Shown here: one piece after another, positions 14 through 27,509 of the stretch
Layout of the letters: each line of letters begins with the position of its first letter
How positions within the stretch are numbered: the first letter of the stretch is position 1
Origin: a phage
Assembly (NCBI GenBank): GCA_012925625.1
Contig: GCA_012925625.1_3625.1
DNA length: 32,536 nucleotides
Reading direction: 5' to 3' (one strand)
Position numbers and translations under genes: made by a program
Notes under the pieces: model-generated
Seen by the model: only the letters and a program-made list of their open reading frames with translations
Database searches by the model: none
What the model was told of the DNA's origin: nothing

Positions 14-637
14 ATGACCACCGTTAACATTACTACAGGTTACAATTTATCTTTCGACGTGCTGACCGACGAACAAAAAGAAAAAGCTGTTGAAATGGTC
101 CGCGAAAGAGAAGAACACAGCGGGGATAACTTTTTTGCAGAAAGTGTAATTGAGTACTATAAAGAATATGTTTTTCCAGAGTATGGCCTTGAAGATACCG
201 AAATACATTGGTCCGGCTTTTGGTGTCAAGGCGACGGCGCGTCAATCAGTGCTGAAAACGTGGATTTAGAAAAATTCTTGCGTAAAGTAAAGGCCCTGAC
301 CAAGTTCCGATCAATTCGTCACTTGTTCGGCACAATGCACGATGGCGAGTTATCAGCCAGTGTTGAACGCGACAAGTACAGCCATTACAGCCATGAAAAC
401 ACTGTAAGCGGGTACATTGATACCACCTGGCTAGATCTGACCGCCAAACAAGAAAACAAAGTGGAAGACCTGGAAGAGCTGATCACCGAGACGGTACGGG
501 AGCTATCCCGCAAGGTTTACGTAGACTTGGAAGCGGCATATTTGGAGCAATTCACTACCGAAAACCTGATCGGCCTTATCGAGGCCAATGATTGGCGGTT
601 TGATGTGGATGAATATGGCGAGATGACTTTTTCATAA
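14..637 (+). CDS. hypothetical protein (207 aa), first gene of plus-strand early cluster
   Basis: Long ORF with RBS AGGAGA 8 nt upstream of ATG; no family recognised by eye. Confidence 0.6.
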   Translation: MTTVNITTGYNLSFDVLTDEQKEKAVEMVREREEHSGDNFFAESVIEYYKEYVFPEYGLEDTEIHWSGFWCQGDGASISAENVDLEKFLRKVKALTKFRSIRHLFGTMHDGELSASVERDKYSHYSHENTVSGYIDTTWLDLTAKQENKVEDLEELITETVRELSRKVYVDLEAAYLEQFTTENLIGLIEANDWRFDVDEYGEMTFS

Positions 638-645
638 ATAAAGTG

Positions 646-673
646 TTGCAATAAACTAAAAACCTGCTATATT
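646..673 (+). promoter_or_regulatory. sigma70-like promoter TTGCAA-N16-TATATT
   Basis: -35/-10 hexamers about 55 nt upstream of the 728 ATG. Confidence 0.4.
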
Positions 674-727
674 AAAACTCAAGGGGGCAAGACGTTTGCC
701 CCCACACAAAACAAAGAGGAAAACATC

Positions 728-1108
728 ATGAAAAACACTACTAAAGCTATTGACACCGTTATGTTTAACCTGGTTACCTTTCGCGAGGATATGAAAGATC
801 TTCCGCGTGAAACAGTGTGCGACCATATCGAAAACTATCGCAAACTAATCAAAGAGTTGCCTTTAAAACGTGATCAGTATGCGGCTAACGCCATGCTTAA
901 TGCCATGATCAAAAAGATGATCCAGTGTGATTTAACTCTAGCCTATGATTATGCGGGTGGTCGTTTTGCAGTATACAATCAGCCCGTGCCAGGTATGGGC
1001 ACCACCGAAGAATTGCACGCGTTAAATCTGAAACAAGATGTATGGGATAACATGCCCCGCGTGGTGGTGTGGGCAGAAAGCGGAAAGATTTACGGCGATA
1101 ATTTTTAA
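728..1108 (+). CDS. hypothetical protein (126 aa)
   Basis: ORF with RBS AAGAGGAAAA upstream of ATG. Confidence 0.6.
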   Translation: MKNTTKAIDTVMFNLVTFREDMKDLPRETVCDHIENYRKLIKELPLKRDQYAANAMLNAMIKKMIQCDLTLAYDYAGGRFAVYNQPVPGMGTTEELHALNLKQDVWDNMPRVVVWAESGKIYGDNF

Positions 1109-1117
1109 TCAGGTAAC

Positions 1118-1144
1118 AGGCGGCAAATATGCCGCCTTATTGTT
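1118..1144 (+). terminator. intrinsic terminator hairpin AGGCGGCA-aata-TGCCGCCT followed by TTATTGTT
   Basis: 8-bp GC-rich stem plus T-rich tail directly after the 1108 stop. Confidence 0.5.
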
Positions 1145-1172
1145 AAACAGAACTGCAAAAGAGGTACATAGA

Positions 1173-1544
1173 ATGGAATTTATTATTTTGGCCGTATTAG
1201 TTGCCTTGTTTAACGCCTGGATCGCTGGCAAGATGGGCAGATCCGCCTTTTTATGGTTTATTATATCTATTTTCCTGGGGGTGGTTGCAACTATTGTATT
1301 GGTTATCCTTGCAATTGTTGACAAGGGGAATAATAGAAAGGGTAAAGTATTTTCAGACCTGTACGACGCTCAAACGTTTGTCAACGCCTATTATAGTGAT
1401 CTTCCAGTCTCCCTACGTTGCAGCCTTGCACAACAGGTTTTCGATGAAGCTAAAACCAGAGATCACGCCCATGAGATTTGTTTAACTGAGGCGGATCGCC
1501 TATTTGAGAGGAATAGAAAATATGTGGGCCAGCCGTTTAAATAA
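1173..1544 (+). CDS. small membrane protein (123 aa, two predicted TM helices at N-terminus)
   Basis: Start moved to internal ATG at 1173 (RBS AAGAGGT 8 nt upstream); hydrophobic N-terminus MEFIILAVLVALFNAWIAG...FIISIFLGVVATIVLVILAIV. Confidence 0.55.
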   Translation: MEFIILAVLVALFNAWIAGKMGRSAFLWFIISIFLGVVATIVLVILAIVDKGNNRKGKVFSDLYDAQTFVNAYYSDLPVSLRCSLAQQVFDEAKTRDHAHEICLTEADRLFERNRKYVGQPFK

Positions 1545-1767
1545 TGCCACGTTAATTAACCCCTTCAGTGAAGATTTGAAGCCAGCCGCCTGGCGGGATG
1601 GATTCAATAAAGAAAGCTTTATTTTCAGGCCTGATCTTAAGGAATTTTATAACAATGGATCGAACAACGACAGAGATAATTTTTCTTATGATGTGTGTGG
1701 TGATAATACTCCTGGGGGCCATTGTAAACCACGTCACTACTACCAGGAGGAAAGGGGGAGACGATGA
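1522..1767 (+). CDS. hypothetical protein (81 aa)
   Basis: ORF in track; chosen start ATG 1522 with RBS GAGAGGAA; overlaps previous gene end. Confidence 0.45.
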   Translation: MWASRLNNATLINPFSEDLKPAAWRDGFNKESFIFRPDLKEFYNNGSNNDRDNFSYDVCGDNTPGGHCKPRHYYQEERGRR

Positions 1768-1883
1768 CACCCAAGGATAAGCCACGCACCGATAAGGCGC
1801 GCCGTGTTATGGTGTGGCTGGAGATCATCGCCCTTGAAATATTGTTAGGCGTAGGGATGTACTTTATCGCTGTAAGTAACTAA
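1764..1883 (+). CDS. small membrane peptide (39 aa), not in ORF track
   Basis: Strong RBS GGAGGAAAGGGGGAG; ATGA overlap with upstream stop; hydrophobic core VMVWLEIIALEILLGVGMYFIAV; stop immediately followed by terminator. Confidence 0.5.
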   Translation: MTPKDKPRTDKARRVMVWLEIIALEILLGVGMYFIAVSN

Positions 1884-1888
1884 GAACG

Positions 1889-1916
1889 GCCCCCGATCAT
1901 GGGGGCTTATCTTTTT
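1889..1916 (+). terminator. intrinsic terminator GCCCCC-gatcat-GGGGGC + TTATCTTTTT
   Basis: Perfect 6-bp GC stem and T-tract. Confidence 0.65.
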
Positions 1917-1939
1917 AAAAAAATTTTTCTCCCAGGGTG

Positions 1940-1967
1940 TTGCAATCCGGTCCGGAATGTGGATAAT
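1940..1967 (+). promoter_or_regulatory. sigma70-like promoter TTGCAA-N16-GATAAT (TGtGGATAAT)
   Basis: Hexamers upstream of the 2024 gene; same aatNtGGATAAT architecture as at 3102. Confidence 0.45.
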
Positions 1968-2023
1968 AACAATCAACGGGGAGCTAATCCCCACCAACAC
2001 AAAAACCAGAAAGGAGAAACAAA

Positions 2024-2224
2024 ATGAGCAACAATATCCGCGTTATTAACTTCAAAAAAGAAGAAAAAATTGCCGTGCTGATTGACGGTCAAGAAATCTT
2101 CAAGGGCGATTATGAAGATCATCAAACGGCGATTAGTATCACTCGCGTGATCGGTTACCATAATTTCTACCCCCAAGGCGCTGAGGCAGCAGTTAAACGA
2201 ATCAAAGAGATTGTAGGCCTGTAA
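2024..2224 (+). CDS. hypothetical protein (66 aa)
   Basis: ORF with RBS AAAGGAGAAA; flanked by promoter and hairpin. Confidence 0.6.
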   Translation: MSNNIRVINFKKEEKIAVLIDGQEIFKGDYEDHQTAISITRVIGYHNFYPQGAEAAVKRIKEIVGL

Positions 2225-2317
2225 AATTTATTTTTAGATGGCCTTGACTCCAGGGCCATCAATAAAGTAAATTTAAACCCTGTTAAAATACCACGCAGTT
2301 AACAAGGAGTGATAGAC

Positions 2318-2617
2318 ATGTTTATCCAGGCTAATAATCTTTATTTCTTTGATGGTCAGATCGTAGACGGTGTGGAAGTGGAGATCACCGGGTGCCCTGG
2401 CGGTCAGGCTATGACTTTTCGGAATAATGCCTTTGATGATTCTCATATCGTTATGAGAATGGAAGTTACGAAGCTGGACGACAAGAAAACACTTATTGAC
2501 TATTCTGTGAAAGATCATCCAGACTACCGCATGATCCATGGCGATTTGTGCATTGTTGACCGTGACAAGGTGGGCGGCATTGTGATCGCTATTGTGAACG
2601 ATGTTTTCTCAAACTAA
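2318..2617 (+). CDS. hypothetical protein (99 aa)
   Basis: ATG at 2318 preferred over the upstream GTG because RBS AAGGAG lies 9 nt upstream. Confidence 0.55.
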   Translation: MFIQANNLYFFDGQIVDGVEVEITGCPGGQAMTFRNNAFDDSHIVMRMEVTKLDDKKTLIDYSVKDHPDYRMIHGDLCIVDRDKVGGIVIAIVNDVFSN

Positions 2618-2634
2618 TTTCAGCAGGTGATTTT

Positions 2635-2985
2635 ATGAAAGTCAAACTATATTACCTTAATGAGCTTAACCCCCTTGCCCAGGTCCGCGCCCTGGCTAAT
2701 ACCTTGATTTGTGAGAAATCTGCATATTGTGTTGAGCTTAACGCCATGCGTGAACGTCTCAAAGGTGGTTACTTTGACATCCATGCTGCAATCAACGGCC
2801 TGAATATGGAATTTATACGCCTACGTAACAGCCGCCGGAATCTGGCAAGAATGGAACAAGATCCGGCCCACCTTCGTAAACTGGTTATTGAAAATCATCT
2901 GATGTTCAATGCCGAGGGTGATTATTACCATTTTAACCGCAAACGTTGGTACCGTGGCGGCAATACAGGCAAGAATGCAAAATAA
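2635..2985 (+). CDS. hypothetical protein (116 aa)
   Basis: ORF with RBS CAGGTGA; followed by two hairpins. Confidence 0.6.
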   Translation: MKVKLYYLNELNPLAQVRALANTLICEKSAYCVELNAMRERLKGGYFDIHAAINGLNMEFIRLRNSRRNLARMEQDPAHLRKLVIENHLMFNAEGDYYHFNRKRWYRGGNTGKNAK

Positions 2986-3020
2986 GGCCCTTAGCAGGGC
3001 CTGCAGCGATATAATCACAT

Positions 3021-3055
3021 AAAGGCTATGCGGTTGCATGGCCTTTATTATTTTA
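3021..3055 (+). terminator. intrinsic terminator (11-bp stem AAAGGCTATGC/GCATGGCCTTT, T-rich tail)
   Basis: Hairpin plus ATTATTTT; preceded by a second hairpin AGGCCC-ttagca-GGGCCT at 2985-3002. Confidence 0.6.
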
Positions 3056-3101
3056 GCGTTACAGCGGCCCCAAGGCGCTTAAAAATTTTTTAAAGAAGTA
3101 C

Positions 3102-3129
3102 TTGCATCAAGCCCTACAATATGGATAAT
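3102..3129 (+). promoter_or_regulatory. sigma70-like promoter TTGCAT-N16-GATAAT (TGGATAAT)
   Basis: Hexamers about 55 nt upstream of the 3185 ATG. Confidence 0.45.
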
Positions 3130-3184
3130 AGGACGTGTCAGGGGGAGGCCCCAATCATTAACCGGATAGATAGGAGTTAAAACC

Positions 3185-3469
3185 ATGGCTATTGTTACCG
3201 CTGGCGATGTAGTAGAAATGGAAGCAAAATACTTAAAAGCGGGTATGCATATCCTACGCAACGATCTTGAACTGGTCCTGACAATGGTTGACTATAACCC
3301 AGGGCAAGATTATCCAAGTGTTGACTACTTTTTTGAGTATGTTGATGAAGAGTTGAAAGAGGATGAGGCCTATTGCGGTGAGTTCTGCAACTTCTTTTGT
3401 CCTGATGAGGTTGTAAAGGTTATCTATCAACCTGGCGTAGCTTTCCCGCTGCACGCTATCAATAAATAA
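3185..3469 (+). CDS. hypothetical acidic protein (94 aa)
   Basis: ORF with RBS GATAGGAG. Confidence 0.6.
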   Translation: MAIVTAGDVVEMEAKYLKAGMHILRNDLELVLTMVDYNPGQDYPSVDYFFEYVDEELKEDEAYCGEFCNFFCPDEVVKVIYQPGVAFPLHAINK

Positions 3470-3531
3470 ACCTGGCGGGGCCGAAAAGGCCCCCGCCTGA
3501 AATTATGAAAAATAAAAAGAGGCAAACTATC

Positions 3532-3765
3532 ATGATGGAACAAATTAAACGCGCTGAGGCTATTAATGGCAATGTGATCTATTTTGTCAGCAAAAACGAA
3601 AAAGGCGTACCCTATGCGGCGGTAATAGTACAGCCTGACGGAGATTATTGGTGCACTGTGTACGGCGCTTATTCTTTTGGGCGTCCAGTGCATGATAAAA
3701 TTTTGAAAGTAGCGAACCCTACCGGGAAAAATATTACAGCAGAAAAATTTTTTGAAAATAGTTGA
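3532..3765 (+). CDS. hypothetical protein (77 aa)
   Basis: Start at ATGATG 3532 with RBS AAGAGG; the track ORF starts upstream without an RBS. Confidence 0.55.
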   Translation: MMEQIKRAEAINGNVIYFVSKNEKGVPYAAVIVQPDGDYWCTVYGAYSFGRPVHDKILKVANPTGKNITAEKFFENS

Positions 3766-3789
3766 CATGACCATATAAAACTGTAGTAT
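3762..3789 (+). promoter_or_regulatory. sigma70-like promoter TTGACA-N16-TAGTAT
   Basis: Consensus -35 and TAnnnT -10 upstream of the 3841 gene. Confidence 0.45.
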
Positions 3790-3840
3790 ATAAATAAAAG
3801 GGAGCAACAAGCCCCACCAACCACAAAGAGGATAAAAATC

Positions 3841-4020
3841 ATGGCTATTATTGCAAAGACCGAGATCGTAGGCTTAGATTCTATTCTCCTCGCATATGAG
3901 GAAGCTATAGAAATGTATGTGGTTTCCTATGGTGAGTATATCCGTGAATATGAATCTATTGATCTAGCTTTTGAATGTTATATTCGCCAGGTTAATAAAG
4001 CGTACGATGATTATCGTTAA
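3841..4020 (+). CDS. hypothetical protein (59 aa), not in ORF track
   Basis: RBS AAAGAGGATAAAAATC then ATG; uninterrupted 60 codons ending TAA at 4018-4020. Confidence 0.5.
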   Translation: MAIIAKTEIVGLDSILLAYEEAIEMYVVSYGEYIREYESIDLAFECYIRQVNKAYDDYR

Positions 4021-4111
4021 AATAGTTTGACAACAAACAACCATCTAACAAAGCATAATACATAAGGTGGTAGAATGATCCGCCACCCGGAACAAAGAAG
4101 AGGTAAACACC

Positions 4112-4357
4112 ATGAAAAGCAATAAAGGTTATAACGGTTACAAAAACAAAACTCATTGGAATGTAAGCCTTTGGATTAATAACGATGAGTCATTGTACCG
4201 GTTGGCCCAAGGCTTTATTAACTCTAATGCTAATCGTAATGATGCGGCGCGGGATATGATGCTTTTTCTGGAGCTAACCGGACAAGATAATACCCCGGAC
4301 GGCTTCAAGTACAGCACTACGGCGATCCGTGCCGCGATGGTTGGAATGAAACACTAA
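4112..4357 (+). CDS. hypothetical protein (81 aa)
   Basis: RBS AAGAAGAGGTAAACACC then ATG. Confidence 0.6.
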   Translation: MKSNKGYNGYKNKTHWNVSLWINNDESLYRLAQGFINSNANRNDAARDMMLFLELTGQDNTPDGFKYSTTAIRAAMVGMKH

Positions 4358-4434
4358 AAGCACATAGCTGCCTTACCCTGGGGCTGTGGTAGCGGCCCCA
4401 TGAATAAGGTTACTAACAGAAGAGAATAAACACC

Positions 4435-4539
4435 ATGAAACAGAAATTAATCGATGCAGTGATCTTGGTTATTGCCCTGGGTATTGGCCTGATTGCAACC
4501 ATGTCTAATATGATCTTGTCTTCCAACGGTATCGGGTGA
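4435..4539 (+). CDS. small membrane peptide (34 aa), not in ORF track
   Basis: RBS GAAGAG; hydrophobic core VILVIALGIGLIATM; sits between 4357 stop and 4549 start. Confidence 0.4.
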   Translation: MKQKLIDAVILVIALGIGLIATMSNMILSSNGIG

Positions 4540-4548
4540 GGTTGGCAA

Positions 4549-4764
4549 ATGATCACTAACAAAACAGGCAAAACAGAATTTTTACGCAACTTGCAGATCG
4601 GCAAGCCAGAGATCTGGCATTGCACTAAAACACCACGTGACGAAATGAAAGACTTCACCGCCACGCTGCAACGGGTAAAGATATCCATCACGCAGAAAAA
4701 GGCCTTGATAGTGGTAGAAGGTGAGATCCCTCAAACCGTTGTTATAGTTGAGCGTACAGCATAG
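4549..4764 (+). CDS. hypothetical protein (71 aa)
   Basis: RBS GGTGAGG then ATG. Confidence 0.55.
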   Translation: MITNKTGKTEFLRNLQIGKPEIWHCTKTPRDEMKDFTATLQRVKISITQKKALIVVEGEIPQTVVIVERTA

Positions 4765-4855
4765 TTTAATTTATAGCGATACCTGAAAATTAACCAATAA
4801 ATCATAAACAGGCGGTTACCGCCGCCTTAAACGTAGCAGAAAGAGGCTAGACACA

Positions 4856-5140
4856 ATGAAAAAGATGATCGCAGTAGTTGCCCTGGTTGTTGGACTTAAT
4901 GCGCCTGTAATGGCTAAAGAGCTGGCAAAAGAGGTTAATCTAACGGATATCCATGCCGTCAATCAAATCGGGGTTACTTATCGCTTATGCCTTGCCGCTA
5001 AAACTTTTAATGACGGCACAACGGAGTACTACGGATTCGAAGGTATCCGGTGCGGTGAGCTTGCTCGCGACCTTAAGGAAGATCCAGACCTGGAAGATCT
5101 GCCCATCACCGTAAACGGTAAAGCTTACGTAAACCGTTAA
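4856..5140 (+). CDS. small secreted/periplasmic protein (94 aa) with N-terminal signal peptide
   Basis: N-terminus MKKMIAVVALVVGLNAPVMA-KE has signal-peptide shape (basic n-region, hydrophobic core, AxA site); RBS AGAAAGAGG. Confidence 0.6.
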   Translation: MKKMIAVVALVVGLNAPVMAKELAKEVNLTDIHAVNQIGVTYRLCLAAKTFNDGTTEYYGFEGIRCGELARDLKEDPDLEDLPITVNGKAYVNR

Positions 5141-5142
5141 CC

Positions 5143-5277
5143 ATGAGAAAGATAATCATCACCTTGGGGATTGTGGCGGGATCGCTGGCGCTCTTTCCCC
5201 TTATGGTTAGGTATGTGCTGATCAGTATTGTCCTGGTAGTCAGTGATCTATTGGAAACGGTTGGCACCTTGTTTTAA
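5143..5277 (+). CDS. small membrane protein (44 aa), not in ORF track
   Basis: ATG 3 nt after upstream stop (coupled); two hydrophobic segments; weak RBS. Confidence 0.35.
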   Translation: MRKIIITLGIVAGSLALFPLMVRYVLISIVLVVSDLLETVGTLF

Positions 5278-5289
5278 AGAGCGGTAAAA

Positions 5290-5481
5290 ATGAATATCGA
5301 ACAAGTTAGAAAAGTATTAGCGGTACTGCGTTATCATAATCATAGAAAGGTCATAGACGATCCTGATTATGTTGATTCAAGCCTGGAAGGGGATACACTA
5401 CAAGCTATAAGTAACATGCAAGAATTGCTAAAGCGCATGACAGAGAAAAACCGACCGGACTACATAGGCGAAAAAATATAA
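5290..5481 (+). CDS. hypothetical protein (63 aa)
   Basis: RBS AAAGAGCGGTAAAA then ATG; followed by terminator. Confidence 0.55.
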   Translation: MNIEQVRKVLAVLRYHNHRKVIDDPDYVDSSLEGDTLQAISNMQELLKRMTEKNRPDYIGEKI

Positions 5482-5495
5482 TATTTATAAACTAC

Positions 5496-5527
5496 AAAAC
5501 AGGGCTTGCAATGGTCCTGTTTTTTGT
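5496..5527 (+). terminator. intrinsic terminator AAAACAGG...CCTGTTTT + TTTTTGTT
   Basis: Stem-loop with T-tract after the 5481 stop. Confidence 0.6.
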
Positions 5528-5609
5528 TATACTTGTTTCACGGCAGGCACCTGGCGACGGGTGGAGACAATCACCGGGCCTGCCTGTCATATAAGAACTA
5601 TAAAAACCG

Positions 5610-5638
5610 TTGACATCTGCCATGGGGGGAGGTAACAT
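5610..5638 (+). promoter_or_regulatory. sigma70-like promoter TTGACA-N17-TAACAT
   Basis: Consensus -35, weaker -10, upstream of the 5693 gene. Confidence 0.3.
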
Positions 5639-6900: not shown

Positions 6901-7517
6901 GTCTGTATTTCTCCTACCACAAACGGCCCTACCTGGCAAATGGAATAATTGACGAGCCATCAATCCCACACACTGTACAAATATACATGTAAAATAGCTA
7001 TTGCATAACCTTTCATTGTGTGGTAGCGGTGCTATTTTTTACCCGTTTTCCTTCCAAAGTTGCACGTAATGCAGTTATTGCACAAAATTTAACCTGATGC
7101 ACATCTTCAATACCTTGTCAACAACTAAAAATCTTTATAAGTCATACACTTACATAACCACAAAAGCGTGTTCTACGCGAAAAATCGAGTATAACTATAG
7201 CCGCCAGATCTCAGAATTCACGTACGCACGCCATTCTATAGCCTGCAAAGTATTTATTCCAACCACAGAATAACGGAATAGTCAATACCTGCATAAAATA
7301 ATTATTCGTGTAAACTGCATAACATAAATCAGCTCAGGTGTCAACATTTTTCGTAAACAGTCCGAAATTATCACGATGAGTTATCATAAACAGAGAAATC
7401 TTTAGTCGTCTAATGTTTACTGTACATTACTATACTGACTGGAATCATTAGATGACTAAGAGAAAGATAAGAAATAATTAATAATGTAATTATTTTACCT
7501 GTAACAATAAGGCAACT

Positions 7518-13310: not shown

Positions 13311-13706
13311 TTACTGAAACAGTGCGGATAAATTACCTTCTGGTGGAAACTTATCTGCCAAAAACGGTGTTAGCACAGTAGCCTTCTGAAGATCTGGGGT
13401 CCACTCGTTGTTCAGAACATCCCAGTAGTACGCAATGTTGCTGTGTGGGTGCCGCATTACGAACTTTTTCCCTTCGTAGTCATCTGAAACCTCTACAGAA
13501 GAAATAACAACAGAATCTTCAAGGGTTTCTTCATAGAAAGATCCACCTTCAAATTTCCAACGAGATGCAAGAGCCCCTGCCTTGAACGCTGCAGATAACG
13601 GACTGTCGGCAAGAACATACATTTCTTGCACTCTGTCGCTGCGATCTTTGCTTCTTACGTTGTATACAGTATCTGAGCTATACTCAACACGGTATAGTCT
13701 TACCAT
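13311..13706 (-). CDS. hypothetical protein, paralogue of 15522..15920 (131 aa)
   Basis: Shares FV(M/I)xHP(H/D)S...(Y/H)YW(D/N)...(E/T)WTP with 15522..15920. Confidence 0.6.
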   Translation of the reverse strand: MVRLYRVEYSSDTVYNVRSKDRSDRVQEMYVLADSPLSAAFKAGALASRWKFEGGSFYEETLEDSVVISSVEVSDDYEGKKFVMRHPHSNIAYYWDVLNNEWTPDLQKATVLTPFLADKFPPEGNLSALFQ

Positions 13707-14038
13707 TACCGCACCTCCTCAATAACTTCCACATCTGAACCTACCACAAATGCAAAAGGACAGGTTTCATGAAAGACATCCGGATCGCCGCCAAGCTTGC
13801 TAACAATTTCTCCACCACTAATAAACACAAGCTCACCGATATTCATCAGATTGCTGAAATAGTATCCATAATGATTAAAGAATGCAGCAGGGTCAGGTAA
13901 GCTAGTAGCCTCAAGTTCTACATCGTTTGAGATTACTTTCTTATCATAACCTCTCGCCTTCTGAGATGCAAGATCTGCAGAATCTTCAGGCGACCGGAGA
14001 TGCACAGGAATTGTTTCACCAATAAATCGTACTTTCAT
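13706..14038 (-). CDS. small acidic protein (110 aa)
   Basis: Start placed at internal ATG 14038 (RBS GGTGAG), directly after upstream stop at 14043. Confidence 0.5.
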   Translation of the reverse strand: MKVRFIGETIPVHLRSPEDSADLASQKARGYDKKVISNDVELEATSLPDPAAFFNHYGYYFSNLMNIGELVFISGGEIVSKLGGDPDVFHETCPFAFVVGSDVEVIEEVR

Positions 14039-14042
14039 ATTC

Positions 14043-14306
14043 TCACCCAACAACCATAGCTTCAAAAGGAGTCATGAACGAATAAACGGCATCATCATCT
14101 GCTTCAGGGAATGCTCCCAAAGACTTCATGTCTGAGCCCTTGACAAATACAAGGTTTTGATCAAAAGCTTCTTGGGGATCAATCCGATACATATCTCGTA
14201 GAATATCGCTTACCTCCTCATCAAGAGGTGAGTATGCTGTGCACGTTTTTCCGATCAAGCTTTGAGAATCAGGGTATCCACCTGAAGTTTTAAAATAAAC
14301 AATCAT
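14043..14306 (-). CDS. small acidic protein, paralogue family (87 aa)
   Basis: ORF; shares GK...VKG.D..S.GA pattern with 15933/16177/19794. Confidence 0.55.
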   Translation of the reverse strand: MIVYFKTSGGYPDSQSLIGKTCTAYSPLDEEVSDILRDMYRIDPQEAFDQNLVFVKGSDMKSLGAFPEADDDAVYSFMTPFEAMVVG

Positions 14307-14401
14307 ATAGTATCACCTCTGGCAAGAGATGGGGATTCCTTTCCCACAAATAATTACAAACTTTTCTTTTTATTGAGAGAAGTATGCTAATCCAAGCAGG
14401 A

Positions 14402-14671
14402 TTACTCTTCTACAATCTCATACACATCAGGAGTTACAATCAACTCTTCTCCGTTACCCGGTGCAACAAACACCACCAAGCCTTCAGGTGTGTGCTTTTT
14501 AGCCATCTCGATAACATCTTCTCGCAGAGCTGGCTCCATCAGATCAAAGCCTTCACCCAAGGCATCACGAACTACCTTCATGTAGTCCACTGGTTGTGCT
14601 TCAACGATCATGCCTTCAACCAGTCCACAGTTTTTGTCTGCCAGCTCAGTTTTGAATAATTTAATTTTCAT
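14402..14671 (-). CDS. small acidic protein, MKIK paralogue family (89 aa)
   Basis: ORF; N-terminal MKIKLFKTEL and C-terminal EIVEE. Confidence 0.55.
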   Translation of the reverse strand: MKIKLFKTELADKNCGLVEGMIVEAQPVDYMKVVRDALGEGFDLMEPALREDVIEMAKKHTPEGLVVFVAPGNGEELIVTPDVYEIVEE

Positions 14672-14697
14672 TTAGAGGTCTCCTCAATTATTTGATA

Positions 14698-14799
14698 TTA
14701 ATAGCCGTAACCTAACACATTAACTACAACTGCGATTGCAAACATAATTTCAAAGCATGCAATCTCTACATTTGGGACTAATTTCTTAATCACACCCAT
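14698..14799 (-). CDS. small hydrophobic peptide (33 aa), not in ORF track
   Basis: RBS GAGGTG 6 nt upstream; MGVIKKLVPNVEIACFEIMFAIAVVVNVLGYGY; start region overlaps the HPF gene 3' end. Confidence 0.3.
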   Translation of the reverse strand: MGVIKKLVPNVEIACFEIMFAIAVVVNVLGYGY

Positions 14800-14808
14800 T
14801 GTAGCACC

Positions 14809-15129
14809 TCATTCTCCAAAGTCAATCTTTACTTTGCCTTTCCCCTTACCTTTCTTTCCACCGCATTTAGCCAGCTGACGTGCTGCAACATCTACCATAC
14901 GGTCAGTTGCCTCGTAAGCATCACTGCCTTTAGCCTTGGCAATAACTTCTTTTCCAGAATTGTCAAAAATGAACGCCATAACTTCCTGGTGATCATTTTC
15001 AACTTTTACACTCACACGTGCATAGTTAACAGAGGGATGTAAACGCTCCAGCTTGGACATTTTGCGGGAAATAAAAGATACCATACCTTCTGTGATTTCT
15101 ACATTGTTGCCAGTGATTTCAATTTGCAT
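14809..15129 (-). CDS. hpf: ribosome hibernation promoting factor / RaiA (S30AE family) homologue with Lys/Gly-rich C-terminal tail
   Basis: N-terminus MQIEITGNNVEITEGM...KLERL...VSVKVE...DAYEATDRMVDVAARQLAK matches the recalled E. coli HPF pattern MQLNITGNNVEITEAL...KLEQYF...VVLKVE...DMYAAIDGLIDKLARQL; RBS AAGGAA. Confidence 0.8.
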   Translation of the reverse strand: MQIEITGNNVEITEGMVSFISRKMSKLERLHPSVNYARVSVKVENDHQEVMAFIFDNSGKEVIAKAKGSDAYEATDRMVDVAARQLAKCGGKKGKGKGKVKIDFGE

Positions 15130-15213
15130 AACGTGTTCCTTTTAAGGAAGAGGGAATAACTATCTCTCTTTGAAAACAATGATACTAAATCTGAAGCGTT
15201 GTGTCAACAGTTT

Positions 15214-15504
15214 TTACAGCTTGTTGTCGATAGTTTTTAAAATATCCACAGCAAGATCTGCCATTTTTCGAACATACTCTGCAAACTCAACAGGATCCTT
15301 GATCAAAGAATTCACAGGGTCGTACCCTAGAGCGTTTAAAATGGCTGCAGCATCTACAACCTTCTCATCATTTGCGAAGATCTCTCCGTCAAACTTGTAG
15401 GTCCATTTTGAGTCAACCTTAGCAGAGCAGGGTTTGTCCATGCTTGTTACACCATCGTCTTTAAACTCTCCTGCGTTATCAATATTTAGAATTAAATCCA
15501 TCAT
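15214..15504 (-). CDS. hypothetical protein (96 aa)
   Basis: ORF in track with a plausible RBS. Confidence 0.55.
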   Translation of the reverse strand: MMDLILNIDNAGEFKDDGVTSMDKPCSAKVDSKWTYKFDGEIFANDEKVVDAAAILNALGYDPVNSLIKDPVEFAEYVRKMADLAVDILKTIDNKL

Positions 15505-15521
15505 GGTGACACCTCACTGTT

Positions 15522-15920
15522 TCAGTTTAGCTTTTCTTCAACAACCCCATAACTTGGGGCAGAGTCAAGAGCTTTCTGGTTTAAAAGTGGCGTAGCAGAA
15601 TCTGCAAACGGTGTCCAAGTTTTTGTTCTGGCATTCCAGTAATGCTTCACTCTGGAATCTGGATGCACTATAACAAAAACTTTTTCACTTGTCAACACAT
15701 TAATTTCTTCTACACCCTTGCTGATAATTTCTCCGTCATAGCCCCCAGTCTGGTATCCTTCGTACCAGGTTCTTGCATAGGCATAGCCAGCCTGCCAGCA
15801 TGCAGCCTCCTCCGAGGTGGAGACTACGTAGAAGTCTTTCTCAAATTCTGGAATACGCCCTTGCTTTACGCTCCAAGCCCCGCGAATTTTCATTGTAACT
15901 TTAAACAGTTTATTTTTCAC
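15522..15920 (-). CDS. hypothetical protein, paralogue of 13311..13706 (132 aa)
   Basis: Shared motif block with 13311..13706. Confidence 0.6.
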   Translation of the reverse strand: MKNKLFKVTMKIRGAWSVKQGRIPEFEKDFYVVSTSEEAACWQAGYAYARTWYEGYQTGGYDGEIISKGVEEINVLTSEKVFVIVHPDSRVKHYWNARTKTWTPFADSATPLLNQKALDSAPSYGVVEEKLN

Positions 15921-15932
15921 AACGGTTACCCA

Positions 15933-16187
15933 TCACAGCTCTACAATATCTGCATCTGACCCTACCCCAAAGGCATAGTAGGACTCTTCCCCGAAATAAT
16001 ATTCAGGTGCACCAGCGGTGATCAGGTCTGATCCCAAGATAAACACCACGTTGTGGCCTACATAACTGTGATGTTGCCGCACAGGATCATCCCACGGCAA
16101 CCCTTCAAAGTATACCGCAGGAACGACCTTTCCATTCAGGAAGGATTGTCCCAAGTAGACGTTAGAATCAAGAATTTTAACCTTCAT
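15933..16187 (-). CDS. small acidic protein, MKVK paralogue family (84 aa)
   Basis: MKVKILDS...GKVV...GSDLITAGA closely resembles 16177 and 19794. Confidence 0.6.
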   Translation of the reverse strand: MKVKILDSNVYLGQSFLNGKVVPAVYFEGLPWDDPVRQHHSYVGHNVVFILGSDLITAGAPEYYFGEESYYAFGVGSDADIVEL

Positions 16188-16404
16188 GATCGTCCTCCAC
16201 TACCTCTACATCCTCACCTAGGGCAAAGTTATAGGTCCACTGACTGTCAAAGCATTCCTGAGATGCACCAGCGGCAATAAGATCTGCTCCTTTTATTTTT
16301 AAAAGGTCAGGGTAATCTTCGTTAGGGACAGCAGTAAACACTTTACCCACTAAAGGCTCCTGACCAATATAGAAGCTTGAATCTAAAACTTTAACTTTCA
16401 TCAA
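16177..16404 (-). CDS. small acidic protein, MKVK paralogue family (75 aa)
   Basis: MMKVKVLDSS...GKVF...GADLIAAGA...EDVEVVEDD. Confidence 0.6.
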   Translation of the reverse strand: MMKVKVLDSSFYIGQEPLVGKVFTAVPNEDYPDLLKIKGADLIAAGASQECFDSQWTYNFALGEDVEVVEDDHEG

Positions 16405-19269: not shown

Positions 19270-19797
19270 TTACATCTCCTGGTTCAAACTGTTAAGAAAG
19301 GATACTCTGTCTTCGCTATTTTTCTCTGTGATATACCCTCCAAACATGGAAAGAATCACATGCTTCAAGTAATCTTTTTCTGGGTCGCTTAGATGATTGC
19401 GTGGCTTTATTTCCACATCATGGTAGTCATACAATCCACAATCATGATACCCCCAGTATCGACACACCTCAATACTGATCGGGAGTTTTTTGTCACACGA
19501 AACTTTCCAACGGGTTACGTTGTTACCAGGGGATAAATCCTCGCCCACCTTCACGAATGACAAATCGTAATTCATAAACTTTTCGTACAGTTTAAGTACA
19601 AAACCCTCTACCTGTGGAGAAACACCAGCCACTAGCTGGGCGTATCTATATTTACTTTCAATAATTTTTCGGCGCTTTGCTGTAAGGTTTATTGCAGCAA
19701 TTTGACTCTCTGAGTATCTCCAAGGCTTATATATAAATGCTTTCGGGTCTTTATCGCCATAAAAATCTTTCCAATCAACCAGTAGCATACCTGTCAC
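19270..19797 (-). CDS. hypothetical protein (175 aa)
   Basis: ORF in track; overlaps upstream stop. Confidence 0.6.
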   Translation of the reverse strand: MTGMLLVDWKDFYGDKDPKAFIYKPWRYSESQIAAINLTAKRRKIIESKYRYAQLVAGVSPQVEGFVLKLYEKFMNYDLSFVKVGEDLSPGNNVTRWKVSCDKKLPISIEVCRYWGYHDCGLYDYHDVEIKPRNHLSDPEKDYLKHVILSMFGGYITEKNSEDRVSFLNSLNQEM

Positions 19798-20027
19798 TCC
19801 TCCACAACTTCAAGGCCTTTGCCGCCTCGTTCTGGTAGATTACTTAAAGACAGGTAATACGTATAGTCAGGAGAGATCCTGCCAGACTCTGCACCTGCAG
19901 ATAGTAAATCTTTTCCCTTAACCATGACAACATTATCGTTTGCAGATAGTCGTTTTGCTTCCACAATTTTACCAACGCAGTCAACCAAGGAAGGGTACCC
20001 TAAATCTGTAAGAAATTTAACTTTCAT
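19794..20027 (-). CDS. small acidic protein, MKVK paralogue family (77 aa)
   Basis: MKVKFLTDLGYP...GKIV...GKDLLSAGA...LEVVEE. Confidence 0.6.
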   Translation of the reverse strand: MKVKFLTDLGYPSLVDCVGKIVEAKRLSANDNVVMVKGKDLLSAGAESGRISPDYTYYLSLSNLPERGGKGLEVVEE

Positions 20028-25128: not shown

Positions 25129-26400
25129 TCAGCAACCACAACTTCCGTAGTGCTTAACCCGTTCTATAACTTCCGCTTGCTTACCTTTATTGTAAGGACG
25201 GGAGTTTGGACTAGACAGGTACCCGGATACACGTCTGATCACACTGATCGTTCCCTCTTCATGGTTTCCACACTCTGGGCATACGAATCCCTTAGCTGTT
25301 GCACTGAACTCACCAGAGAAACCACACTTAAGACATTTATCCACAGGCTGGTTGATACCAAAATACATAATGTGTTTATATCCGAAATCAACAAGAGCTT
25401 CCAAAGCATCTAAGTTGTTTTTCAGATTTGGTGTCTCTACGTATCCGATGTTGCCACCAGAAGAGATCATAGCAAAACCTTCCTCATACTCCCACTTATC
25501 AAAAGGCGAGCTATTGATCCATACTGGCTGATGGAAACTGTTGGTGAGATATTCATGCTCGTGCTTCAACACTTCAGGATATTCACGATCCAGACAGGTT
25601 GCAGCTTTATAGCATAGACTCTCAGAAGGGGTGCCGTACAAGCTAAACGCTAGTCTACTTTCCTTCTTGTATCGCTCACAAGCATCTCTCATGTGCTGAA
25701 GTATTCCAAGAGCTAAAGCCTTGTCACCCTCCCTGCCCAAAATCTGACAGGTTTCATACACACCAATATACCCAATACTGATGGAAGCGTACCCGTCATA
25801 GAAGAGTTTATCAATACTCTCTTCAGGATCCAGGCGAGCAAGAGCGCCTTCACACCACATGATAGGGTTCTGCCCTGCCTTTGTTCCTTTTAGACGGTTA
25901 ACCCTTACAAGGTGAGCCTCGTATGCAAGATCCAGGTATTCGTCAAGAACTGCAAAGAAATCAACACCTTCCGTTTTAGCTTTTGCCGCAATCATTGGCA
26001 GGTTAAGGCTAACAACGCCTAAGTTAAATCTGCCAAGGTATTTCTCCTCTCCTGTTTCCAAGTCATTGTATTTGCTAAGAAAACTCCGGCAACCCATGCT
26101 CGTTACTTTACCATCTGTCGAGCCTGTCACTTTACGATTTAGTGGAACAGAAACAAAGTCAGGATAAATCCGCTCTGCAGAGCATTCCAGAGCTAATCGT
26201 TTCAAATCATAGTTAGGATCTCCAGGGTTCATGTTGACACCCTCTTCTAGGAAGAACAGCACTTTAGGGAACACAGGTGTGATACGTTCTTCACCAAGAC
26301 CCATTTTGTGGACTTTCAAGTAGTTTTTGGTAATCATTCTACCAAATACTGAGGTGTCCAGACCTAAACTTAATGTGATAAAAGGGGTTTGCGGTCCCCA
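25129..26400 (-). CDS. nrdD: anaerobic ribonucleoside-triphosphate reductase, exon 2 (C-terminal part)
   Basis: Glycyl-radical motif RVSGYL, zinc-site CLKCG...CPECG; reading frame stays open upstream of the track ATG to 26400 (WGPQTPFITLSLGLDTS...). Confidence 0.8.
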   Translation of the reverse strand, partial: WGPQTPFITLSLGLDTSVFGRMITKNYLKVHKMGLGEERITPVFPKVLFFLEEGVNMNPGDPNYDLKRLALECSAERIYPDFVSVPLNRKVTGSTDGKVTSMGCRSFLSKYNDLETGEEKYLGRFNLGVVSLNLPMIAAKAKTEGVDFFAVLDEYLDLAYEAHLVRVNRLKGTKAGQNPIMWCEGALARLDPEESIDKLFYDGYASISIGYIGVYETCQILGREGDKALALGILQHMRDACERYKKESRLAFSLYGTPSESLCYKAATCLDREYPEVLKHEHEYLTNSFHQPVWINSSPFDKWEYEEGFAMISSGGNIGYVETPNLKNNLDALEALVDFGYKHIMYFGINQPVDKCLKCGFSGEFSATAKGFVCPECGNHEEGTISVIRRVSGYLSSPNSRPYNKGKQAEVIERVKHYGSCGC

Positions 26401-26648
26401 CCCTTATGTTTCCACAAGGCCAGACTATCTCTTGCCTGAAATCACACCGTGTGATTCTTAATCAGACCTCTGCGTTTCGGAATCTTCCATAATCCCTACA
26501 CCAAAAGGTTAGTCGTTACAACCGCCTCACTCCTTGTGAAGCTAGTCACGGGATTGGCATAGCTTTCGCCTTAGCGTTCCCCGTTAGCCAGCGATCAGCT
26601 GACCCCTCATACTGAGGTTAGCAGAGTTTTAAAACGGCCAGTTTGTTA
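26401..26648 (-). ncRNA. group I self-splicing intron (ORF-less, ~248 nt) interrupting nrdD
   Basis: Minus-strand RNA shows P1 pairing AACGGU with GCCGUU ending in U.G, ACGGGGAAC...AAUCCCGUG (P4/P6), GACUA paired with AAGAGAUAGUCUGG (P7), GAAA-capped P9 hairpin and terminal G; boundaries +/- a few nt. Confidence 0.75.
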
Positions 26649-27509
26649 ACCGTTGACAGAAGTTAACGTATTGATTTGATAGAGCAAAGTCTGCATGCTG
26701 TCAAATACGTCTTTATCTGTCATTTGCATTGCAACAGTCTCAGCATCTGGCAACCAATGTTCCTGGCAAAATTTAAGGTTCTTCTCATAGGTCGCTTCAG
26801 CATACTGTGCCAGATAATGATCAATATGGCTCATAGTCTGACCCCCATATTGAGCACTAGCTACTGCACTAGAGATTTGGCTAAGGATTGTTGTTGCAAC
26901 CCCTATTGACTTCGGCTTACTGACATGGGCGTTACCAATGTTGAATCCGTTTTCCAACATGTCGGGATAATTTACCAAACAACAGTTTGTTAACGGACTG
27001 ATCAAGTAGTCAAGATCATGCACATGGATGAAGCCTTTATTGTGCTCTTCTGAGACACGGTCTGGCAGGATCTGTGTTGATGCAAGATGTTTGCTAAGGA
27101 TTCCTGCAAGCAGGTCACGATGAGTGTGTACATGATTAGTAGGCTTATTTGCGTTTTCTTTTGTAAATTCATCACAAGTTCGATCCAAGAAGCCACTAAT
27201 ATCTGCAAGCAGTTTTCCACCTGCCTCTCTGTTATTATCTCTTGTCTGCCTATATTGGATGTATTCTCTGGCTGCACATTTTAAACCCATATCCATAAGA
27301 GCGTCTTCAACAAGGATATGGATATTTTTTACAGAGATCGTGCACTGATCGGTTGGTAGATTGTTAGCAACAACTTCATTAACCGCACAGGCGATCCGGT
27401 AAGCTTCTTCTTCAGTATGTCCAGACTCAAGTAAGGCGGACTCTGCCGCCTTGATCACCTTAATTCCGTTATAGAACTCTTCTCTACCGTCCCGTTTTAC
27501 AACTTTCAC
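26649..27509 (-). CDS. nrdD: anaerobic ribonucleoside-triphosphate reductase, exon 1 (N-terminal part with ATP-cone)
   Basis: N-terminus MKVVKRDGREEFYNGIKVIKA is ATP-cone-like; frame closes in the intron 3 nt past the proposed 5' splice site. Confidence 0.8.

Follow-up and report, generated by a model that had tools for sequence, protein, structure and literature searches.

Gene Organization at the hpf Locus

The region covered by the window (the whole stretch of 32,536 nucleotides analysed here) was 97–99% DNA-identical to rV5-like phages (Vequintavirus). The initial annotation had placed an open reading frame of 106 aa at 14809–15129 and read its product as a phage-encoded homologue of the ribosome hibernation factor HPF/RaiA. 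The frame was found on the minus strand, which the annotation had not given; it starts with ATG and runs for 106 codons to a TGA stop, filling this interval exactly, and the plus-strand frame of the same interval was not open. The translation was MQIEITGNNVEITEGMVSFISRKMSKLERLHPSVNYARVSVKVENDHQEVMAFIFDNSGKEVIAKAKGSDAYEATDRMVDVAARQLAKCGGKKGKGKGKVKIDFGE, and the motifs cited for the assignment, MQIEITGNNVEITEGM, VSVKVE, ARQLAK, and GGKKGKGKGKVK, were all present in it. The features of the locus are listed in Table 1. The positions of the surrounding genes agreed with the earlier placement of hpf among small accessory genes, away from those of nucleotide metabolism. A Pfam search of the ten flanking small minus-strand ORFs gave zero matches. 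The ribonucleotide reductase genes nrdA, nrdB, and nrdD, together with PhoH and a ClpP-like gene, lie at 21.6–31.2 kb, that is, 6–16 kb from hpf.

Table 1. Features of the hpf locus and examples of the extended −35 block in the window.
Feature	Position	Strand	Basis
hpf-like CDS, 106 aa + TGA stop	14809..15129	minus	ORF list; Pfam, NCBIfam, and PDB matches; rV5 ORF144 (ABI79209) orthologue
S30AE/HPF core domain, residues 1–90, β1-α1-β2-β3-β4-α2	14860..15129	minus	AlphaFold2 model and Foldseek
C-terminal Lys/Gly-rich tail (GKKGKGKGKVKIDFGE), predicted disordered	14812..14859	minus	pLDDT <50
σ70-type promoter: AAACTGTTGACA (extended −35), 17 nt spacer, TATCAT (−10)	15179..15213	minus	11/12 consensus match
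Shine–Dalgarno sequence AAGGAA, 6 nt before ATG	15136..15141	minus	Sequence; conserved in orthologues
Downstream 33-aa hydrophobic ORF, rV5 ORF145 homologue	14698..14799	minus	CDS in rV5, FV3, JES2013, and Murica
Extended −35 site, example	15202..15213	minus	
Extended −35 site, example	7339..7350	minus	
Extended −35 site, example	5604..5615	plus	

In rV5 (DQ832317), ORF144 is named 'sigma 54 modulation factor' and is preceded by the annotated σ70-type promoter P144. The protein was encoded at no less than 93% amino acid identity in 119 phage records, and the frame was intact in 119. Other names given to the gene in GenBank are hpf, ribosome hibernation factor, and RaiA; the RefSeq name 'RaiA' is a generic label and carries no subfamily assignment. 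The orthologue is misnamed 'ATP-dependent protease La type I' in OR062525, OR062530, MT884009, and MT884011. Furthermore, APCEc02, nom, and S127 BCL3 carry the name 'sigma 54 modulation factor' two genes too far downstream, on the homologue of 14402..14671, and this error has spread by similarity. No S30AE match was found in the product of 14402..14671, and this gene is unrelated to hpf. In addition, 18–19 MG0656xx records labelled 'Campylobacter phage' (host Campylobacter jejuni) were 97–98% DNA-identical to the E. coli rV5-like phages here, and their host attribution looks doubtful.

The hpf promoter lies directly after the stop codon of the upstream gene and is the same as P144 of rV5. Its extended −35 block was invariant in 13 loci, the divergent L004 lineage included, and the full promoter pattern was unique in the window, with 0 occurrences expected by chance. 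Between the promoter and the Shine–Dalgarno sequence, a 5′UTR hairpin with 8 predicted pairs (AAGAGGG...CCCTCTT in most orthologues) was observed at 15148..15170 (minus). It was not retained as a regulatory element: there was one compensatory pair in 8 sequences, and the hairpin is weak in the window allele, which has an A–C mismatch. A promoter-like site in the 3′ end of hpf (14825..14798), the −10 element of which directly adjoins the ATG of the following ORF, was also set aside as probably a chance occurrence. Promoter-like sites in the region were no commoner than in shuffled sequences (7 against 7.9 expected).

The downstream 33-aa ORF starts 9 nt past the hpf stop codon, and its own Shine–Dalgarno sequence, GAGGTG, overlaps that stop. 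Judging from this short gap and overlap, it is probably co-transcribed with hpf. A Pfam search of this ORF gave no match. When up to 2 mismatches were allowed, AAACTGTTGACA occurred at 19 sites in the window compared with 4.5 expected, and 17 of the 19 were oriented in the same direction as local transcription. The sites may represent a family of promoters that drives two divergent early transcription units. The sites at 84–5615 were all on the plus strand; among the 13 sites at 7339–28842, 11 were on the minus strand and two (19286 and 26647) on the plus strand.

Several small genes near hpf formed paralogue families. The products of 13311..13706 and 15522..15920 shared 27.5% identity (E = 3 × 10−10), and those of 15933..16187 and 16177..16404 shared 40% (E = 2 × 10−14). 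Moreover, 16177..16404 matched 19794..20027 (minus) with an E-value of 3 × 10−7, and both 15933..16187 and 16177..16404 weakly matched the C-terminus of 13706..14065. No Pfam match was obtained for any of these paralogous genes (13311..16404 and 19794..20027, minus). Further along the same strand, nrdD (25129..27509, minus) was split. The ORF at 26646..27509 corresponded to an ATP-cone and positions 1–154 of the NRDD model, and the second ORF, at 25129..26337, to positions 180–562 and the glycine-radical domain. A candidate group I intron at 26402..26658 (minus) lies in the gap; it aligned with RF00028 over positions 1–253 of 253 with 29.2 bits (E = 1.6 × 10−5), under the Rfam gathering score of 50. 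In GenBank, nrdD is given as two CDSs in some records and as one in the BASEL records.

Family Assignment and Predicted Fold

The protein matched the Pfam family Ribosomal_S30AE (PF02482; gathering score 23.7) with 56.7 bits and an E-value of 4.2 × 10−15, residues 3–89 being aligned with positions 1–83 of the 88 in the model. The S30AE profile match that the initial annotation had proposed as a check was thus significant. The general HPF/YfiA model of NCBIfam (TIGR00741) was passed with 56.8 bits against a cutoff of 40.9. The best NCBIfam score, 65.2 bits, was obtained with the enterobacterial short HPF equivalog NF007780, under its cutoff of 125, and the RaiA/YfiA equivalog NF007654 gave 22.8 bits, under its cutoff of 158. 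In PHROGs, the protein fell in phrog_12469 ('unknown function') with an E-value of 1 × 10−69; a weaker match was phrog_8990, 'sigma 54 modulation protein/S30EA'. The top matches of a sequence search against the PDB were E. coli HPF entries (2rql, 4v8h, and 6h4n; E about 4 × 10−15), and E. coli YfiA was matched with an E-value of 0.02. The phage protein and E. coli HPF were 42% identical over 89 residues, and the ITGNNVEITE block was identical in both.

An AlphaFold2 model was built on an alignment of 70 sequences; the query lacked Met1, so that model residue n is protein residue n + 1. The mean pLDDT was 82.4, with values of at least 80 across the core blocks and below 50 for the last 15 residues (model 91–105). 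The elements of the model were E2–7, H13–29, E33–42, E47–55, E60–67, and H70–89, which is the β-α-β-β-β-α order of HPF named beforehand as the expected fold, and the model superposed on E. coli HPF. In a Foldseek search of the PDB, the top 36 fold matches were all ribosome hibernation factors. The TM-score was 0.92 at an rmsd of 0.9 Å for V. cholerae HPF (4hei_A) and 0.88 at 1.0 Å for ribosome-bound E. coli HPF (6h4n_x), within an overall range of 0.88–0.93 at 0.9–1.0 Å for the HPFs of these two species. The C-terminal dimerisation domain of the long, Gram-positive type of HPF was absent: the protein is a single domain of 106 aa with no second Pfam domain and a disordered tail.

By sequence and predicted fold, the phage protein is, virtually without doubt, a homologue of the S30AE/HPF family. 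More precisely, it is a diverged single-domain member of the short-HPF type and the Vequintavirus orthologue of rV5 ORF144. With the profile match, the fold, and an rV5-like Vequintavirus genome in agreement, the reading as a phage-encoded HPF/RaiA homologue held. It is correct but not new, because the gene is annotated in rV5 and its product was analysed by Mizuno et al. (2019, Nat Commun 10:752, PMC6375957), who described the proteins of rV5, FV3, JES-2013, and FFH2 as virus-encoded HPFs and found them to fall among gammaproteobacterial sequences. That study had thus already covered the existence of the phage HPF, its family assignment, its place in the phylogeny, and an initial functional test, and dozens of GenBank records give the gene a name.

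Ribosome-Contact Residues and the C-Terminal Tail

The contacts of Gram-negative HPF/YfiA with the ribosome were taken from a preprint (10.1101/2025.10.07.680626) and are given in E. coli numbering. The phage HPF kept K23, K26, Q29 (as Arg), E60, R83, Q84, K87, and K91. Replaced positions were K80 (Val), K89 (Gly), D/E51 (Met), T53 (Phe), and H55 (Phe), so that the T53/H55 patch, which contacts m2G966 and uS9, is Phe/Phe. Position 80 was Lys in 56 of 67 family representatives and position 89 was Lys or Arg in 62 of 67; the Lys residues at both positions were absent from both phage lineages that carry the gene. Among the basic α2 contacts with 16S rRNA (K80, R83, K87, K89, and K91), three of the five were kept (phage R84, K88, and K92), which is low and within the family range; four or more were found in 57 of the 67 representatives. 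For the class-conserved contact positions, the phage HPF kept 7 of 10, including the Arg that contacts m4C1402. This placed it in the lowest 18% or so of the family, 12 of the 67 representatives scoring 7/10 or less.

The phage HPF has 18 residues after the equivalent of K87, which is also the family median. The corresponding length was taken as 8 residues for E. coli HPF and as 26 for YfiA. Of the reference sequences used for the contacts and tails, HPF 1–89 was verified by the PDB alignment, and the alignment of YfiA reproduced the K80/R83/K87/K91 identities of the preprint (10.1101/2025.10.07.680626). Basic tails were common in the family, and a glycine fraction of at least 0.3 was found in 0 of 47 comparable representative tails. 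In the model, a Gly-Gly pair after K88-C89 ends α2 early. The coding sequence of the tail contains a run rich in G and A, AAGGGGAAAGGCAAAG. In Murica and APCEc02 (L008 and L009), the GGGGAAAGG run carries 1-nt indels by which the tail is truncated or shifted out of frame, giving proteins of 99 and 101 aa; these may be real variants or homopolymer sequencing errors.

Origin of the Gene and Selection

When 1.84 billion representatives were searched exhaustively with HMMER, one close relative was found (P0004, 66% identity). Beyond it, all representatives were at most 44% identical, and no cellular one exceeded 44%. A word-indexed homologue search had found only 5 close relatives and an IMG/VR scan only 2 loci; the wider family was reached with the exhaustive search alone. 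P0004 occupies the syntenic position in contigs of 125–137 kb from a related but divergent phage; a second phage lineage therefore carries hpf in the same place, at 64–66% identity. Because the clade is isolated and a syntenic orthologue exists in a divergent lineage, the capture of hpf was old and not recent. The gene was taken long ago from a gammaproteobacterial-type hpf, and the donor is defined no more finely than as gammaproteobacterial and short-HPF-like. A further hit, P0007 (1160 aa, 8 matched stretches), was rejected as a multi-S30AE protein; the match was spurious and the protein is a PPC-repeat protein.

The dN/dS values of Vequintavirus orthologues, calculated by the Nei–Gojobori method, were 0.03–0.05 at dS of 0.17–0.9. 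In comparison with P0004, synonymous sites were saturated, and dN was 0.25 for the core and 0.63 for the tail. Within Vequintavirus, the tail was under purifying selection as well. Since purifying selection was this strong, hpf is clearly functional.

Published Functional Test and Possible Roles of the Phage HPF

The phage HPF has been tested by Mizuno et al. (PMC6375957). The rV5 gene was placed on pBAD24 in E. coli NM522 and induced with 1 mM arabinose, which was present already in the pre-culture. At OD600 1 the cells were collected, and their ribosomes were sedimented through 500 mM NH4Cl and 1.1 M sucrose. Peptides of rV5 HPF were detected in the crude extract and none in the 70S and 100S ribosomes washed with 500 mM NH4Cl, and the 100S fraction of these OD600 1 cells was unchanged on expression. 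The authors considered the growth phase, a genuine loss of binding, or salt-induced dissociation as causes of the missing association, and speculated that the viral HPF competes with the host factor and thereby prevents ribosome dimerisation. The ribosome-profile and 100S assay that the initial annotation had proposed has thus been carried out once, with a negative outcome under high-salt washing. A literature search on rV5 or Vequintavirus and hibernation returned no dedicated study after 2019. A search for a transcriptome or proteome time course of an rV5-type phage likewise returned none, so early expression of hpf is inferred only.

The initial annotation had suggested that the phage protein could freeze or remodel host ribosomes. 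The reading preferred here, with a probability of about 50%, is that this diverged HPF-type factor still occupies the decoding cleft of the 30S subunit in vacant ribosomes. Host RNA polymerase would transcribe hpf early in infection. The protein would then bind, like HPF/RaiA, at the A/P-site of vacant host ribosomes through its retained K23, K26, R29, E61, R84, Q85, K88, and K92 (phage numbering). Its affinity would be lower and salt-sensitive, because K80, K89, D/E51, T53, and H55 are replaced. The flexible Lys/Gly tail may provide non-specific affinity for rRNA and run in the direction of the RaiA tail. From the weaker docking and this tail, a behaviour nearer to RaiA (70S-bound and 100S-neutral) than to an RMF-dependent promoter of 100S formation would be expected. 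The net effect would be a transient parking or protection of idle host ribosomes during infection. Such docking would reconcile the strong selection, the kept core contacts, and the negative high-salt result. Furthermore, the cultures that constantly expressed rV5 HPF from the pre-culture on still reached OD600 1, as would be expected if only vacant ribosomes were bound. Against this reading stand the negative result of the only experiment, the loss of two of the five basic α2 contacts and of the T53/H55 patch, and scores under the cutoffs of both equivalog models.

A possible but doubtful alternative is that the Vequintavirus HPF clade has been retuned, either to a low-affinity anti-hibernation ligand that excludes RMF or to an off-ribosome protein with a new ligand. 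Such retuning would agree with the shared loss of K80/K89 and T53/H55, the Gly-broken α2 and the tail, the negative ribosome result, and the strong selection.

Taken separately, both branches appear unlikely. In the first, which is the hypothesis of Mizuno et al. (2019, PMC6375957), the protein would be a weak, reversible competitor of host HPF/RaiA on the 30S subunit and, through its tail, of RMF, and would keep ribosomes from stable 100S formation or hibernation. The erosion of K80 (Val), K89 (Gly), T53 (Phe), and H55 (Phe), with the fold and the central Arg/Lys residues kept, fits a weak competitor. The tail, which by its length is nearer to the RaiA type heading to the RMF site than to that of E. 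coli HPF, points the same way. In addition, for DRT2 there is a report of RMF induction triggered by defence under phage attack. However, the small 100S fraction was not visibly reduced on expression, in cells collected as exponential growth was ending, a stage at which 100S ribosomes are scarce, and a weak binder would need a very high copy number to outcompete the host factors. If this role were true, phage translation would be possible in slow-growing, cold-shocked, or defence-induced dormant cells.

In the second branch, which we rate as similarly improbable, the HPF fold would have been neofunctionalised off the ribosome, as a dsRBD-like/HPF scaffold whose ligand could be a different RNA, a protein of the host, or a nucleotide signal. 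The missing ribosome association and the replacement of contact positions in both phage lineages despite strong purifying selection would be in line with this. Moreover, there is a precedent for re-use of the scaffold in Acb4 (PF13876), a phage anti-CBASS cyclic-dinucleotide sponge the monomer of which was reported to resemble V. cholerae HPF (4HEI; Chang et al.). However, the identity to E. coli HPF extends to R83, Q84, K87, and K91, the leading PDB fold matches were hibernation factors without exception, and no PF13876 match was found for the phage HPF at E ≤ 10.

Finally, the view that hpf is a decaying, functionless relic of a horizontally acquired host gene, for which the negative published assays and the tail frameshift variants of Murica and APCEc02 could be cited, is extremely improbable and was rejected: the dN/dS values effectively refute it, the frame is intact in the 119 records and in a lineage with saturated synonymous sites, the promoter and Shine–Dalgarno sequence are conserved, and the tail variants, being 1-nt indels in a G/A homopolymer-rich run, may be sequencing errors.

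Phage genes for the translation machinery are of interest as tools of host takeover, and phage control of hibernation could bear on whether phages infect dormant cells. The residue differences and the promoter described here serve only the design of experiments on the function of the phage HPF.

Comparison with Known Systems

The nearest known system is rV5 ORF144, which is the same gene, with 97% protein identity, the same position and neighbours, and the same promoter. The window allele (106 aa) has 'GNNVEIT' as in E. coli HPF, whereas the rV5 protein (105 aa) has 'GNVEIT', one Asn of the β1-α1 loop being missing; the rV5 protein also differs by R22H and V34A.

E. coli short HPF (YhbH; 2rql, 6h4n, and 6y69) has the single S30AE domain in common with the phage protein and the same fold at 1.0 Å. 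In contrast, E. coli HPF lacks the α2 broken by Gly-Gly and the 18-residue Lys/Gly tail of the phage, having 8 residues there. Enterobacterial short HPF promotes the conversion of RMF-induced 90S dimers to 100S, whereas expression of rV5 HPF had no discernible effect on 100S in the OD600 1 cells. With E. coli RaiA (YfiA, protein Y), the phage HPF shares the fold and a C-terminal extension beyond the length of HPF, which in RaiA is directed to the RMF site. Family members bind the A/P-site cleft of the 30S subunit and block translation there, and the phage HPF would use the same site. Compared with the Lys/Gly-rich tail of the phage, that of RaiA is longer and ends in acidic residues.

Acb4, compared by description, has a three-stranded core with N- and C-terminal flanking helices and forms tetramers; it differs from the phage HPF in the order of the elements and the number of strands. 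As a family assignment, an Acb4-type sponge was rejected in view of the missing profile match, the HPF topology, and the fold matches to hibernation factors.

Among viruses, a fold search of BFVD returned only a handful of other HPF-fold proteins. The jumbo phages GAP32 (Cronobacter, K4F6Q6) and PBECO4 (Escherichia, L7TII8) encode HPF-fold proteins of about 110 aa, which were 23–26% identical to the phage HPF and belong to PHROG 8990, compared with 12469 here. These S30AE proteins probably represent a separate acquisition. The small number of other viral HPF folds and their low identity agree with the separate acquisitions that Mizuno et al. (2019, PMC6375957) described.
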